From: a virus
Taxonomy: Duplodnaviria > Heunggongvirae > Uroviricota > Caudoviricetes
Virus record (IMG/VR): IMGVR_UViG_2923307698_000003
Direction: 5' to 3' (one strand)
DNA: 48,241 nt
Made by a program: the position numbers. Positions 40,501-46,500 of the stretch are shown here, piece by piece; position 1 is the first letter of the stretch; every line of letters starts with the position of its first letter.

Positions 40501-43500
40501 ATGCGTGGGGGGCAGCAGGGCGATCCGGCGTCGGTATCGTTCCGGATTGCCGCACCGGCAGCGCCGTCACAGATTGAGCTGACACCGGGCTATTTTCAGA
40601 TAACGGCGGTCCCGAAACTGGCTGTATATGACCCGACGGTACAGTTTGAATTCTGGTTTTCGGAGGCAAAAATCGCAGACACATCTCAGGTGGAAACCTC
40701 TGCCCGTTATCTGGGGACCGGCAGTCAGTGGAGTGTATCCGGCCCGCACATTAAGCCCGGGAAGGATTTCTGGTTTTATGTGCGCAGCGTCAACCTGGTG
40801 GGGAAATCTGCGTTTGTGGAAGTCAGCGGGCAGCCCAGCAATGATGGTGAAGGGTATCTGGAATTTTTCCGGGAAAAAATAGGAAAACTGCATCTGGCTC
40901 AGGGGCTGTGGGAGCTGATAGACAACAGCCAGCTTGCGGATGAGATGGCGGAGATGAAGACCACCATCACAGAAACCCGCAATGAAATCACGCAGACGGT
41001 CAGTAAAACCCTGGAAGACCAGAGTGCCACCATACAGCAGATACAGCGGGTGCAGACAGACACAAATAACGACCTGGCTGCGCTGTATATGCTGAAGGTG
41101 CAGAAAACGAAAAACGGCATTCCGTATGTTGCCGGTATAGGTGCGGGGATTGAGGATGCTGATGGCCAGCCCCTGAGCAATATTCTGCTGCAGGCAGACC
41201 GTATCGCGATGATTAACCCGGAGGACGGCAACAGCACGCCGTTATTTGTGGCGCAGGGGAATCAGTTGTTCATGAACGATGTGTTCCTGAAGCGGCTGTT
41301 TGCGGTGAGTATCACCTCGTCCGGCAATCCCCCGACGTTTTCCCTGACGCCGGAGGGCAGGCTGACCGCAAGAAATGCTGATATCAGCGGTAACGTGAAT
41401 GCGAATTCCGGGACGCTCAACAACGTCACGATTAACGAGAACTGTCGGGTTCTGGGAAAACTGTCCGCGAACCAGATTGAAGGCGATCTCGTTAAAACAG
41501 TGGGCAAAGCTTTCCCCCGGGATTCCCGTGCACCGGAGCGGTGGCCATCAGGGACCATTACCGTCAGGGGTTATGACGATCAGCCGTTTGACCGGCAAAT
41601 TGTTATTCCGGCGGTGGCATTCAGCGGCGCTAAACATGAGAGAGAGCATACTGATATTTACTCCTCATGCCGTCTGATAGTGCGGAAAAACGGTGCTGAA
41701 ATTTATAACCGTACCGCGCTGGATAATACGCTGATTTACAGTGGCGTTATTGATATGCCTGCCGGTCACGGTCACATGACGCTGGAGTTTTCGGTGTCAG
41801 CATGGCTGGTAAATGACTGGTATCCCACAGCAAGTATCAGCGATTTGCTGGTTGTGGTGATGAAGAAAGCCACCGCAGGCATCAGTATCAGCTGAATTTT
41901 ATAACCCATATACGGGCGCCAGAAATGGCGCCTTTTTTATTGCAGAAAAGCGAGAGGTAATTATGCGTAAACTTTATGCCGCCATTTTGTCCGCAGCCAT
42001 TTGTCTGGCCGTATCCGGTGCACCTGCATGGGCGTCTGAGCAGCAGGCCACGCTGAGCGCGGAGTACCTTCATGCCCGGACGAACGCTCCCGGTAGCGAT
42101 AATCTTAACGGGATTAACGTGAAATACCGTTATGAATTCACGGACACGCTGGGGCTGGTGACGTCATTCAGCTATGCAGGAGACAGGAATCGCCAGATTA
42201 CCCGTTACAGCGATACCCGCTGGCATGAAGATTCCGTGCGTAACCGCTGGTTCAGCGTAATGGCGGGGCCGTCTGTGCGCGTGAATGAATGGTTCAGCGC
42301 GTATGCGATGGCGGGAGTGGCTTACAGCCGTGTGTCGACTTTCTCCGGGGATTATCTCCGCGTAACTGACAACAAGGGGAAAACGCACGATGTGCTGACC
42401 GGAAGTGATGACGGTCGCCACAGCAACACGTCTCTGGCGTGGGGAGCTGGCGTGCAGTTTAACCCGATCGAATCCGTGGCCATTGATATTGCTTATGAAG
42501 GCTCCGGCAGTGGCGACTGGCGCACTGACGGTTTCATCGTGGGTGTCGGTTATAAATTCTGATTAGCCAGGTAACACAGTGTTATGACAGCCCGCCGGTT
42601 CAGGCGGGCTTTTTTGTGGGGTGAATATGGCAGTAAAGATTTCAGGTGTACTGAAAGACGGCACAGGAAAACCGGTAGAGAACTGCACCATTCAACTGAA
42701 AGCCAGACGGACCAGCAGCACGGTGGTGGTGAACACGGTGGCCTCTGAAAATCCGGATGAAGCCGGTCGTTACAGCATGGACGTTGAGTACGGTCAGTAC
42801 AGTGTCATTCTGTTGGTGGAGGGCTTCCCGCCGTCACATGCCGGGACCATCACCGTGTATGAAGATTCTCAACCCGGTACGCTGAATGATTTTCTCGGTG
42901 CCATGTCGGAGGATGACGTCCGGCCGGAGGCACTGCGCCGTTTTGAACTGATGGTGGAAGAGGTGGCGCGTCACGCTGAGGAGGCGAAGAAGAATGCCGG
43001 AGAAGCAGAGACGTCCGCGAGGAATGCCGGCATATCAGCCAGTCAGGCAGAAGAGAACGCTGCAAATGCTGACACTTCAGCAGGGGATGCATCGGAGTCA
43101 GCCCGGCAGGCGGCAGAAAGTGCAGCCGGTAATGCAGCCAGGGATGCAACGACCGCAACAGAAAAAGCCCGGGAGTCAGCAGAAAGCGCACAGTCAGCGG
43201 AACAAAGCAGGATAGCGGCGGAAGAGGCCGTAAACCGAATCCCCACCGTGGTGGGACCTCCCGGGCCAAAGGGGGAACAGGGGCCCGCGGGTCCTCAGGG
43301 GCCGAAGGGTGATAAGGGAGAGCGCGGTGACACCGGCCCTGTCGGGGCAACCGGCGAACGGGGACCGGCAGGTGATGCTGGTCCGGCAGGCCCGCAGGGG
43401 CCGAAAGGTGACAGGGGAGAGCGGGGAGAGCGGGGAGAGACCGGTCTGACGGGAAATGCAGGTCCACAGGGTCCAAAGGGAGATACCGGTGCAGCAGGCC

Positions 43501-46500
43501 CGGCAGGCCCACAGGGACCGAAAGGAGAAACAGGTGCGGCTGGCCCGGTGGGGGCAACCGGACCTCAGGGGCCGAAGGGCGACCCGGGGGAGACACAAAT
43601 CCGTTTTCGTCTGGGGCCGGCGAGCATTATTGAGACAAACAGCAATGGCTGGTTCCCGGGTACAGATGGTGCGCTCATCACCGGACTGACCTTTCTTGAC
43701 CCCAAAGATGCCACACAGGTTCAGGGGCTGTTTCGGCATTTGCAGGTCAGGTTTGGTGACGGGCCGTGGCAGGATGTTAAGGGGCTGAATGAAGTGGGCA
43801 GTGATACAGGCAGAACAGGAGAATGACATGAATATACTAAAAAAACTTATGCAGCGTCTGTGTGGTTGCGGAAAGCATGATGGCCGTGAACACGTGCAGT
43901 CGCTTACAGCACAACTGCGACTGGGGCCGGCAGACATCCTGGAGTCCGATGAGAATGGTATTATTCCGGAGCAGGACAGGGTAATCACGCAGGTGGTGAT
44001 ACTGGATGCGGATAAAAAGCAGATACAGTGCGTGGTAAGACCGCTGCAAATTCTGCGTGCTGACGGGAGGTGGGAAAATATTGGCGGAATGAAATAGCCG
44101 ACAGCTTCACAAAAACCGGAGTCCGGCTCCGGTTTTTGTTGTCATGTCCGGTGGATGTTTGTTAGGAATGTTCAGACAGGTTTATTTTGAATTTACACAG
44201 AATCCTAAACAGGTTCGAAAATTAAGAAAGAGGTTGTATGTTTAGCATAAGAACCCTACTACCTATTAGCGCCAGCGTATCAGTTCCGACAAAACAATCT
44301 CAATCCATCCCAATAACTTTAGCAGGGAGAACAATCGAAAAAGCGCAAGAGAAAGAAGGATTACTTGTTTTTTTAGGAATGAAATCCGTTAATGACTATA
44401 CTCTTAATATTCTTGGCCAAAATGTTTCAAGAGTCACAACGGGGAAAAAACCGTATGATTTATTATTCCTGAATGATGCTACAAAACAAGATTTTGATAA
44501 AAGGAAAATGGAGTTTACATATCCTGGAGCAAATAAAAGCCATCTACAATCAAGTAATAGCGATGTTGTTGCTGCTGCAGCTATAAGTATTACAGCGACA
44601 GAGATGAAAACCATCCTGCCAGATGATTTAACACCAGGAAAATACAACAAAATTTATCTGTCTGGGCATGGTTCTGCTGGTCTACCTCTTCTTAAGTGCG
44701 GAGATGAATTTTTATCACCGTCAGATATTGTCGACCGCATTGTTCAGCATAATCTTCATGAAATAGATGATATCAGATTAACATCCTGTAACTCAGCCAA
44801 CATAATAAAAAACAAAGACTTCTCTCCTGATGAAATAGAAAAATCCGCAAATATGAATAACGGCTGGTTGGCCAGGGCATTATTTGGTCAAAAGAGGTCT
44901 TTAGCAGAACACGTCTATGCCGAGTTTGAACGTCGCGGAATTAACGTTTCTATATCAGGTTACCATGGCACTGGCGTTTTTTATGTACCAGAGCATGGTA
45001 AACCAACAACGCATCTACGCTCCACAACTGTGCCTGCAACACCTGAACATACTGTAAGAAGAAGCGACTACAGAGCCACTTTGGGTAGAACTCAACCCAT
45101 AGATATTGAGTAATTGAGCCAGCATATACACTTGATGGTTAGGAAACAGAATCATTGTTTTAAACATTTCCTGGCCATTAATATTGTCGGCGGGAGCATA
45201 TCCAGGACTGGCCGGCAAACCGGGTACGCGATCTGTTGCCATGGAAAGTTGATCTGAGCGCTCAGTAAATATCAATACGGTTCTGGCGAGCCGCTTACGA
45301 TGCATGAGAATCACTAATAGTATGTAATTGTTACATTTTATTTACAATGCTGTTTCTGTTGGTCTGCATCCATAATTATGAAATGCTGACTTATGGTGTC
45401 AAAATAACACATATTCCTTTCAATAATCATTTCTTTTACTATCTTTTCCCTGCTGAGAGGGTGGGGTAGATGTTCTCTTGTGAGATTCATGAACGCAGAC
45501 TTATCATAAAGAGTGCATATGTTGGAGTTCAGTGCGTTCTTGACAAAAACCCCTTTTTCTGGAACGCATAATGTTATTGGGCACTTAAGAAATTGTGTGT
45601 CGCAAGAGAATTCATCAGGATTTACAACAAATGAATGAGAATGGATTTTATTTTTAAGGGCGTTTTCGGCCCCTTTTTTCCATCCTATATTTGAAGATAA
45701 TTGAAGCATAAAATCCTGAGATATTTGTGCAAAACTTCGTCCGTTGTTGATCTGCTGTTCCAGGTTGCGAGCAATAGTGTTTTGTCTCGCCATAAATATG
45801 GAGAAATGATTACTGCATACAGGATTTACTGTAAAACCATTGACTGATTCGATATAACGGATATCCATTTTATAACGTTCTTTTATGATTACAGTATCAT
45901 TTTGATTTTGCTGCACAATATAACGTAAAGATGCTAGCTCATTCTCAGGTAAGATACTGCCTGCTGTGAAGTTTAAAAATATAGGCATGTTTTTTTCTGT
46001 AATACAAGTCGATTGTTTGTGATTTCGCGCTGTAGGTATATTATCATTCATATTTAACTTCCTAAAGTATGACCTCGTAGGGAGATAAATGCAATACTTA
46101 AAGGTAGATTGAAATGATAAATTAGCGCTTGGTAAATCCAGAATTTCATAAAGAGAGAGGTGGTGTTTTTTCATAGCGCTGAGATGTAAGTTGCAACATG
46201 TATTATATGCAAGAGAATAGGGAGTACTGGATACATTAACTCTATGTAATCCATTCAAGATATTAATGCAATTGAAATAATTGACATAAAATATTGCATA
46301 GGTGAGGTTTATTGCTCAGAAGATGGAGTTATCGATGCAGAAACTGGAAGAACTGCGGCAGCGATAGCGCAGGTCGATTGCAATGACGAGATTTATCAGC
46401 GCCAGCGTGGGATAAAAGAGAATCTGAGCAGTCTGGAGAATTTGAAAACCGGTTAGGGATTTCATACTAGAATAATAGGATCCGCGGCACGTCGTATGAA

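Follow-up and report, generated by a model that had tools for sequence, protein, structure and literature searches.

A conserved paralog of the fibre tip is encoded directly behind a collagen-like side tail fibre gene in lambdoid prophages of enterohaemorrhagic Escherichia coli

Why should a prophage keep, directly behind the gene for its collagen-like side tail fibre, a second gene that encodes little more than the tip of the same fibre? The question is raised by a stretch of viral DNA of 48,241 nucleotides (nt), IMG/VR record IMGVR_UViG_2923307698_000003, which derives from a lambdoid prophage in ydfJ of Escherichia coli of the enterohaemorrhagic (EHEC) type and is called the window below, meaning the whole of the stretch that was analysed. 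Two adjacent genes near its right end are of concern here, a side tail fibre gene of 399 amino acids (aa), whose C-terminal module is called T, and an open reading frame (ORF) of 89 aa, called S. The gene pair, the domain family and the idea of a cassette are already known from databases and papers. In particular, the same pair is known from Sp5, a short-tailed Stx2 phage in which an 89-aa ORF68 follows the fibre gene ORF67 (Mondal et al. 2016; PMC5155283); ORF67 was essential, while deletion of ORF68 still yielded plaques and lysogens on E. coli K-12, and ORF68 was proposed to be 'an intragenomic reservoir sequence', no frameshift-prone sequence having been found. A literature search by locus tags returned nothing relevant. 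While the discovery of the pair in the window is not itself new, the present study adds population-level evidence that S works as a protein rather than as spare DNA. With about an even chance of being right, it is proposed that S is an expressed, conserved and dispensable accessory subunit, made of the same PfC domain as the fibre's C-terminus, that works with the fibre tip and is probably docked on it in the virion.

The features on which the argument turns are the following.

42627..43826, + strand: side tail fibre gene, 399 aa, with the EPclA architecture (PfN, coiled coil, collagen, PfC); Pfam PF08400, PF01391 and PF06820; PHROG 366 'tail fiber protein'.
42627..43025, + strand: PfN domain (lambda Stf-like N-terminus), aa 1-133; PF08400 phage_tail_N, E 3e-69.
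43026..43253, + strand: Ala/Glu-rich coiled-coil region (PCoil), aa 134-209; its nature is taken from PMC3368898.
43254..43595, + strand: collagen-like shaft, aa 210-323; Pfam Collagen, with the nested direct-repeat families D1 and D2.
43596..43823, + strand: tip module T, aa 324-399 (76 aa), made up of the PfC domain and a 12-aa tail.
43611..43621, + strand: 11-nt box CTGGGGCCGGC (codons for LGPA) at the start of T; repeat family D3, with a second copy at 43921-43931, at the start of the PfC part of S.
43817..43821, + strand: Shine-Dalgarno sequence AGGAG for S, within the last fibre codons and 6 nt upstream of the ATG.
43828..44097, + strand: small ORF S, 89 aa, with a variable 27-aa leader (LCGCGK motif) and a free-standing PfC domain (aa 28-89).
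44109..44139, + strand: hairpin terminator closing the fibre-S unit, with a 13-14 bp stem flanked by A and T runs; inverted repeat I6.

By sequence, the fibre is assigned to the EPclA class (PfN-PCoil-Col-PfC), defined by Ghosh et al. (2012; PMC3368898) for prophages of E. coli O157:H7. Its Pfam matches follow the order of that class, with PfN (PF08400) first, a single collagen match and PfC at the C-terminus. The lambda Stf-like N-terminus reported in the first-pass annotation was borne out, both by the PF08400 match and by the first 93 aa (residues 1-93), which match a solved chain (PDB 9e7m_Ta, 'Tail fiber protein', E 2e-51), in keeping with a Stf N-terminal tail-attachment domain. Beyond this domain the protein departs from the Stf/gp37 type of shaft and tip (Phage_fiber_2 repeats), as Pfam gave no match to PF03406, the shaft is collagen-like and the tip is PfC. 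A regular-expression count found exactly 38 Gly-X-Y triplets in a single unbroken run, the same number as originally read from the sequence, and the C-terminal module that had been described was also found. In the latter, PF06820 (Phage_fiber_C) matches aa 325-388 over model positions 1-64 (E 6e-36, 123.1 bits; the model has 64 positions and a gathering threshold of 25 bits). The fibre is about 98% identical to those of phages 2851 and 1717, and is an unusual length variant of its class: in a global alignment with the 437-aa fibre of locus L082, its PCoil lacks 41 aa relative to the usual EPclA of 437 aa, and its collagen run has one additional Gly-Glu-Arg (GER) triplet. Differences in PCoil length among EPclA proteins are typically multiples of seven (PMC3368898), which 41 is not, but a homologous Ala/Glu-rich segment is present. 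EPclA has been characterised by size-exclusion chromatography with multi-angle laser light scattering, circular dichroism and electron microscopy as a dumbbell-shaped trimer of roughly 55-60 nm; isolated PfC and Trx-PfC are trimeric as well, and PfC is a trimerisation domain that renucleates the collagen helix after heating (PMC3368898). When S is not co-expressed, recombinant EPclA, Col-PfC and PfC still trimerise in E. coli, and Col-PfC regains its fold by itself after heating (PMC3368898).

The ATG of S lies 1 nt past the fibre TGA (43824-43826), and the AGGAG upstream of it agrees with the earlier description of a separate ORF with its own ribosome-binding site. Residues 28-89 match PF06820 across model positions 1-64 (E 1e-36, 125.5 bits), and the PHROG 576 match spans S from end to end (89/89, E 2e-59), which places S in both PF06820 and the ORF68/PHROG 576 group. 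PF06820 is its sole Pfam match and NCBIfam gave none, so that S matches no family of the Tfa, Caudo_TAP or gp38 type. It is the last gene ahead of a strong terminator (fold of -25.1 kcal/mol, z -5.8), and the initial 53 nt 3' of S, terminator included, are conserved with it in long- and short-tailed Stx phages. In lambda, the slot after stf belongs to tfa, and S sits in the equivalent slot.

T and S are, as read from their sequences, true but ancient paralogs. BLASTP aligns them with 25/63 identities (40%, E 2e-15), a similarity that is far beyond chance, and both carry PF06820. The paralogy first suspected from the sequence therefore passed the pairwise alignment proposed as its check: the similarity is significant, and S does not match an unrelated assembly protein family. 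When aligned in register, their DNA is 54% identical, falling to 41% at third codon positions, and the longest exact match is the 11-nt box. Sequence searches found no solved PfC structure, and AlphaFold2 monomers computed from 25-sequence alignments gave a mean predicted local distance difference test score (pLDDT) of 53 for S and 58 for T; both models are all-beta with strands at corresponding positions, but are of too low confidence to use. The same failure of structure prediction for the PfC domain is reported by the authors of a preprint on phage phi24B (bioRxiv 10.64898/2026.04.10.717836). A clue to the origin of the domain comes from a distant protein of 565 aa (P0239), in which four tandem repeats of about 80 aa precede a collagen-like region. 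The PfC core is echoed in the second half of every repeat (VVVLDAD...ILQVRRADGTW), and the protein scores 57.6 bits against PF06820; this suggests that PfC-like units may be stackable along a fibre and that PfC may derive from a stackable repeat unit.

Altogether, 161 related loci were gathered from IMG/VR, public genomes and GenBank phage records, and the occurrence of S was counted in the 75 that were found via the T module and had enough downstream sequence. An intact 89-aa S stands exactly 1 nt past the fibre stop in 68 of these (91%), while it is disrupted in six and missing in one (about 9% together), and the junction of stop, single nucleotide and ATG is kept in nearly all related loci. 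Across 87 S alleles, the Nei-Gojobori ratio of nonsynonymous to synonymous polymorphism (pN/pS) is 0.17 for the whole gene, 0.35 for the 28-residue leader and just 0.07 for the PfC core, compared to 0.32 for the core of the fibre tip, with a synonymous diversity (pS) of 0.11-0.14. S is a selected protein, and is constrained more than T. Its start codon, ribosome-binding site, conserved coupling junction and core pN/pS all indicate a functioning protein and not a silent spare. In one locus (L060), the fibre is of the EPclB type of short-tailed Stx phages, with an unrelated N-terminal half, yet is followed by the same block of collagen, T, S and terminator; by this comparison S appears linked to the tip T and not to one type of fibre.

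Some further observations concern variation within S. Apart from codon 81 (window 44068-44070, in the DG-x-W loop), which is multi-allelic (T/R/V/K/A) where the matching tip position is an invariant Pro, polymorphism lies mostly in the leader (codons 1-28), and the second Cys of LCGCGK is frequently replaced by Tyr or His. At 43839-43845 (codons 4-6, CTA AAA AAA) lie seven A residues in a row; two loci (L119 and L121) have only six, giving a frameshifted product of 51 aa, which could mark a mutational hot spot or result from faulty sequencing. The LCGC motif raised the idea of a lipoprotein or an exclusion function for S, which was rejected: the leader is too short and too charged for a signal peptide, a Citrobacter homolog lacks most of it, and the second Cys is often replaced, as noted.

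How might such a protein act? The fibre attaches to the tail through its Stf-like N-domain and trimerises via the coiled coil and PfC, with PfC registering the collagen helix (PMC3368898). From the gene layout, S would be translated by re-initiation or coupling at the fibre stop, late in infection and in roughly fibre-like amounts. It would probably form a PfC trimer of its own, because PfC self-trimerises, and could then act in trans on the tip of the finished fibre, travelling with the virion, docked on the tip and affecting adsorption. An accessory subunit of this kind is favoured because the S core is strongly constrained, S is obligately co-inherited with T, it occupies a tfa-like position, it is non-essential on K-12, and peptides from it have been found with virions. 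The peptides come from phi24B, in which the S homolog is gp59 and the fibre gp61. The preprint's supplement (bioRxiv 10.64898/2026.04.10.717836) reports two peptides exclusive to gp59, VITQVVILDADKK and ADGTWENIGGMK, from purified virions, in a proteome row that its authors labelled 'Spike or just gp59?'; the search database had been supplemented with hypothetical frameshift fusions of gp61 and gp59 ('Fusion_6159'). The presence of gp59 peptides in the virion preparation is suggestive, not conclusive.

Several points weigh against this proposal. The phi24B peptides number only two, stand in a supplementary table and come from a sample with admitted contaminants (Bor and Lom), and gp59 is left undiscussed in the main text of the preprint (bioRxiv 10.64898/2026.04.10.717836). 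Deletion of ORF68 in Sp5 had no reported effect on plaques or on lysogenisation of K-12 (PMC5155283). That S binds the fibre at all is only what we infer from the combined analysis, and the low-confidence models of S and T give it no structural support. Variable residues of T and S are barely associated (mean r2 0.03, with all four gametes at 99 of 136 site pairs), so there is no sign of allele-specific co-evolution, although association between T and S alleles is confounded by linkage and recombination and is not decisive. Lastly, a very conserved S core beside a more variable T agrees no less with a chaperone or adaptor than with a structural cap.

A more specific version, which is possible but should be regarded as tentative, is that S is the split-off second module of a former tandem PfC tip, and that the S trimer stacks non-covalently on the T trimer to form the true distal end of the fibre. 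If this were true, adsorption to natural hosts that bear O-antigen would be governed by S, accounting for the lack of a visible effect on K-12, and here would be a fibre-tip partner born of tip duplication and not recruited from a chaperone family.

The main rival to an accessory subunit is a transient assembly chaperone, similar to Tfa or gp38/gp57, that would aid trimerisation of PfC and the collagen end, or block aggregation, and then leave. The position of S after the fibre gene, where tfa would be, and the coupling of its translation to that of the fibre are both in keeping with such a role, as is the contrast in pN/pS between the S core and the tip (0.07 vs 0.32), which would be expected if S recognised a conserved folding intermediate; the absence of allele-specific co-variation with the variable residues of the tip points the same way. 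Nevertheless it seems rather unlikely, since EPclA, Col-PfC and PfC trimerise without S (PMC3368898), Sp5 tolerates the loss of ORF68 though ORF67 is essential (PMC5155283), S-specific peptides appear among those of the phi24B virion preparation, and S matches neither Caudo_TAP nor any other assembly protein family. A chaperone derived from the tip was among the roles suggested in the first-pass annotation, and of this idea the accessory protein stands, but a strictly required folding chaperone is unlikely, given that EPclA trimerises alone (PMC3368898) and ORF68 is dispensable (PMC5155283).

It is improbable that S is mainly spare coding sequence, to be swapped onto the shaft so as to change receptor specificity, as in the reservoir proposal of Mondal et al. 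(2016). The 11-nt box that opens both modules would suit such exchanges, and rare natural rearrangements of T and S do exist. One is in locus L082 (GCA_005381265.1), where fibre and T are followed by a chimera of S(1-40) and T(26-78), and then by S; the chimera is an extra ORF of 92 aa at 2697-2975, with the same 1-nt coupling junctions on both sides, and is the product expected of unequal exchange between T and S. In another case (P0060, locus L081), collagen is fused directly to an S module, and in two loci (L016 and L001) 1-nt deletions inside T run the fibre into the S frame. However, the junction of the L082 chimera has essentially zero homology, the P0060 fusion is at the edge of a draft contig, and the deletions in L016 and L001 abolish half of T and have the appearance of decay or of errors in sequencing. 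Exchange between T and S is rare and illegitimate. A DNA identity of 54%, with exact runs of no more than 11 nt, is too little for homologous recombination, and an S-type module was not found as the end of an intact fibre in any of the 161 loci or in protein searches. Nor is there machinery for switching: no invertase or recombinase was found near the locus, its neighbours being lom, an Ibe-like effector and NleG7, and the search for invertible or recombinogenic repeats advised by the first-pass annotation found none flanking the modules, only weak and scattered inverted repeats besides the hairpin of the terminator. T and S share the + strand, and the oppositely oriented tips, inverted crossover sites and adjacent serine invertase of a Gin/Cin/Pin-type fibre switch are all lacking. 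A diversity-generating retroelement does not fit either, as its template and variable repeats would be about 90% identical and differ at adenines, whereas T and S DNA are only 54% identical and differ at all bases, with no reverse-transcriptase signature seen, although a reverse transcriptase was not searched for window-wide. Finally, a silent cassette needs no start codon, Shine-Dalgarno sequence or 1-nt junction, nor a core pN/pS as low as that of S. For these reasons, the alternative receptor-binding cassette of the first-pass annotation is poorly supported.

More doubtful still is a programmed +1 frameshift, or a bypass of the stop codon, that would give a minority of fibre chains a tandem T-S tip. 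S does lie in the +1 frame, 1 nt past the stop, and the AGGAG before the stop is Shine-Dalgarno-like and loosely recalls the prfB shift site; in most related loci the S frame also extends without a stop some 45 codons 5' of its ATG (with TGG or TTG where the window has TGA), and in the phi24B supplement the software grouped the S peptides with the hypothetical fusions (bioRxiv 10.64898/2026.04.10.717836). On inspection, however, there is no slippery heptamer within 43789-43826 and no CUU-U-type shift codon, and GAA-UGA-C allows no re-pairing of the tRNA; Mondal et al. (2016; PMC5155283) likewise found no frameshift-prone sequence. In the window itself, a TGA at 43786-43788, just upstream of an alternative ATG (43789), closes the S frame and leaves 38 nt for a shift, and no junction peptide is visible in the accessible part of the phi24B supplement. 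Re-initiation explains the conserved ATG and Shine-Dalgarno sequence more simply.

That S no longer functions and is left over from an earlier duplication or cassette exchange, persisting through linkage only, can hardly be entertained: such prophages are often defective (J is frameshifted in the window) and S is broken or missing in some 9% of related loci, but the core pN/pS of 0.07 at a pS of 0.14, the 91% of copies that are intact with a conserved coupling junction, and the retention of the pair on two different fibre backbones, as well as in phages that are inducible and infectious (2851, Sp5 and phi24B), effectively refute it. The footprint of cassette exchange offered in the first-pass annotation fails on the same grounds (68 of 75 copies intact, with a strongly constrained core). 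Among the functional options put forward there, the alternative cassette and the footprint thus give way, and the accessory or chaperone protein derived from the tip survives, which narrows the function of S to that of a protein acting with the tip and not spare DNA.

In EHEC-type lambdoid prophages, the late tail operon normally closes with the fibre-S pair at its distal end. At about 98% identity, the same gene order recurs in phages 2851 and 1717, in many Stx1 and Stx2 phages and in 692 out of 5426 complete E. coli genomes. The NCBI Prokaryotic Genome Annotation Pipeline (PGAP) names the fibre 'prophage tail fiber N-terminal domain-containing protein' and S 'phage tail fiber C-terminal domain-containing protein'. 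Out of 1.84 billion representatives, an exhaustive profile search recovered 89 clusters, made up mostly of E. coli fragments, and a scan of GTDB species representatives gave three loci, one of them in E. albertii; from these sequences the family appears tiny and essentially limited to prophages of Escherichia, Shigella and Citrobacter. A protein search with the T module returned nearly only fragments from the ends of draft contigs, and is uninformative on architectures. The other two GTDB loci fall outside this range, a 725-bp contig of Xanthomonas pisi DSM 18956 (L164) with a 92%-identical small ORF, and a contig of a Clostridiales metagenome-assembled genome (L165) with a complete and ordinary EPclA fibre, and are most likely due to contamination with E. 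coli DNA or mis-binning.

Around the pair, the right end of the prophage reads J, lom, fibre gene, 89-aa ORF, strong terminator, AT-rich cargo and truncated host ydfJ, and chromosomes of O111:H8, O111:NM and O145 strains are 99% identical to the window across 42600-48241. The neighbouring features are as follows.

40501-41895: C-terminal part of J.
41963-42562: lom, with a Pfam Ail_Lom match.
42589..42610, + strand: terminator-like hairpin between lom and the fibre gene, from a terminator scan; given for context.
44238-45113: Ibe-like effector.
45338-45988, minus strand: NleG7.

The terminator-like hairpins at 41914-41933 and 42589-42610 bracket lom, which is what a moron lodged between J and the side-fibre gene would lead one to expect. 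J, the tail-tip gene, is divided into two overlapping frames (ORFs 38367-40577 and 40501-41895), and tblastn with J of phage 2851 matches frame 1 and then, from six consecutive G residues onwards (GCGTGGGGGGCAG, window 40503-40511), frame 2; the prophage is probably defective, unless this is a homopolymer error in the assembly. Past the terminator, GC content falls from about 0.62 in the fibre gene to 0.36 in the cargo, where 44238-46258 is AT-rich (GC 0.33-0.43) and looks like a typical exchangeable effector locus. The 291-aa ORF of the cargo is named as the type III secretion effector Ibe in phage 2851, and has no Pfam match. In a 99%-identical O111:H8 genome, PGAP places a 67-nt pseudogene fragment of a 'tail assembly protein' directly 3' of the small ORF, overlapping the terminator (window 44098-44164, or L162 3112-3178), which may be what is left of a tfa gene whose place the collagen-tip cassette has taken. 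A DNA search with the stretch 3' of the small ORF matched only Stx-type phages and no annotated tfa.

Collagen-like fibres occur in up to about 19 copies per EHEC genome, on phages that spread Shiga toxin and type III effectors, and the 2026 phi24B cryo-electron microscopy preprint regards the role of such fibres as an open question (bioRxiv 10.64898/2026.04.10.717836). A tip paralog that is under selection and apparently virion-associated provides a concrete handle on it.

Comparison with known systems helps to place the pair. In lambda Stf-Tfa and T4 gp37-gp38, a small partner gene also directly follows that of the side fibre, and the partner is dispensable or accessory on laboratory hosts; the lambda Stf N-terminus is, in addition, homologous to that of the window fibre (PF08400). 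In contrast to both, the partner in the window is a paralog of the fibre's own tip and not of the Caudo_TAP or gp38 type, and the shaft is collagen-like where Stf and gp37 have a beta-structure shaft. The invertible cassettes of Mu (Gin, S/U-S'/U'), P1 (Cin) and e14 (Pin) also have two alternative C-terminal fibre modules adjoining each other, but in the window the copies are on the same strand, lack inverted repeats and an invertase, and the second has its own start codon. To our knowledge, a separately encoded free copy of the domain beside its gene is known neither for the V domain of Scl2 nor for the foldon of T4 fibritin. As registration domains of collagen and similar shafts, these two resemble PfC in being small, globular trimerisation domains that nucleate a triple-stranded shaft (PMC3368898). 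The EPclA proteins of O157:H7 (e.g., ECs2717; PMC3368898) share the PfN-PCoil-Col-PfC order and more than 90% identity outside indels, but are of 437 aa and not 399 aa, and a small downstream ORF is absent from the discussion of Ghosh et al. Closest of all are ORF67/ORF68 of Sp5 (VT2-Sakai), equivalent to the pair in 933W and to gp61/gp59 of phi24B, with collagen repeats, a PfC tip, an 89-aa ORF of PfC only and the same terminator. The collagen-T-S block of Sp5 is nearly identical in sequence to that of the window, but its fibre has an EPclB backbone with another N-domain, two collagen segments and a Pf2 repeat, whereas the window prophage is long-tailed, has J and lom, and bears the cassette on an EPclA backbone that is lambda Stf-like.

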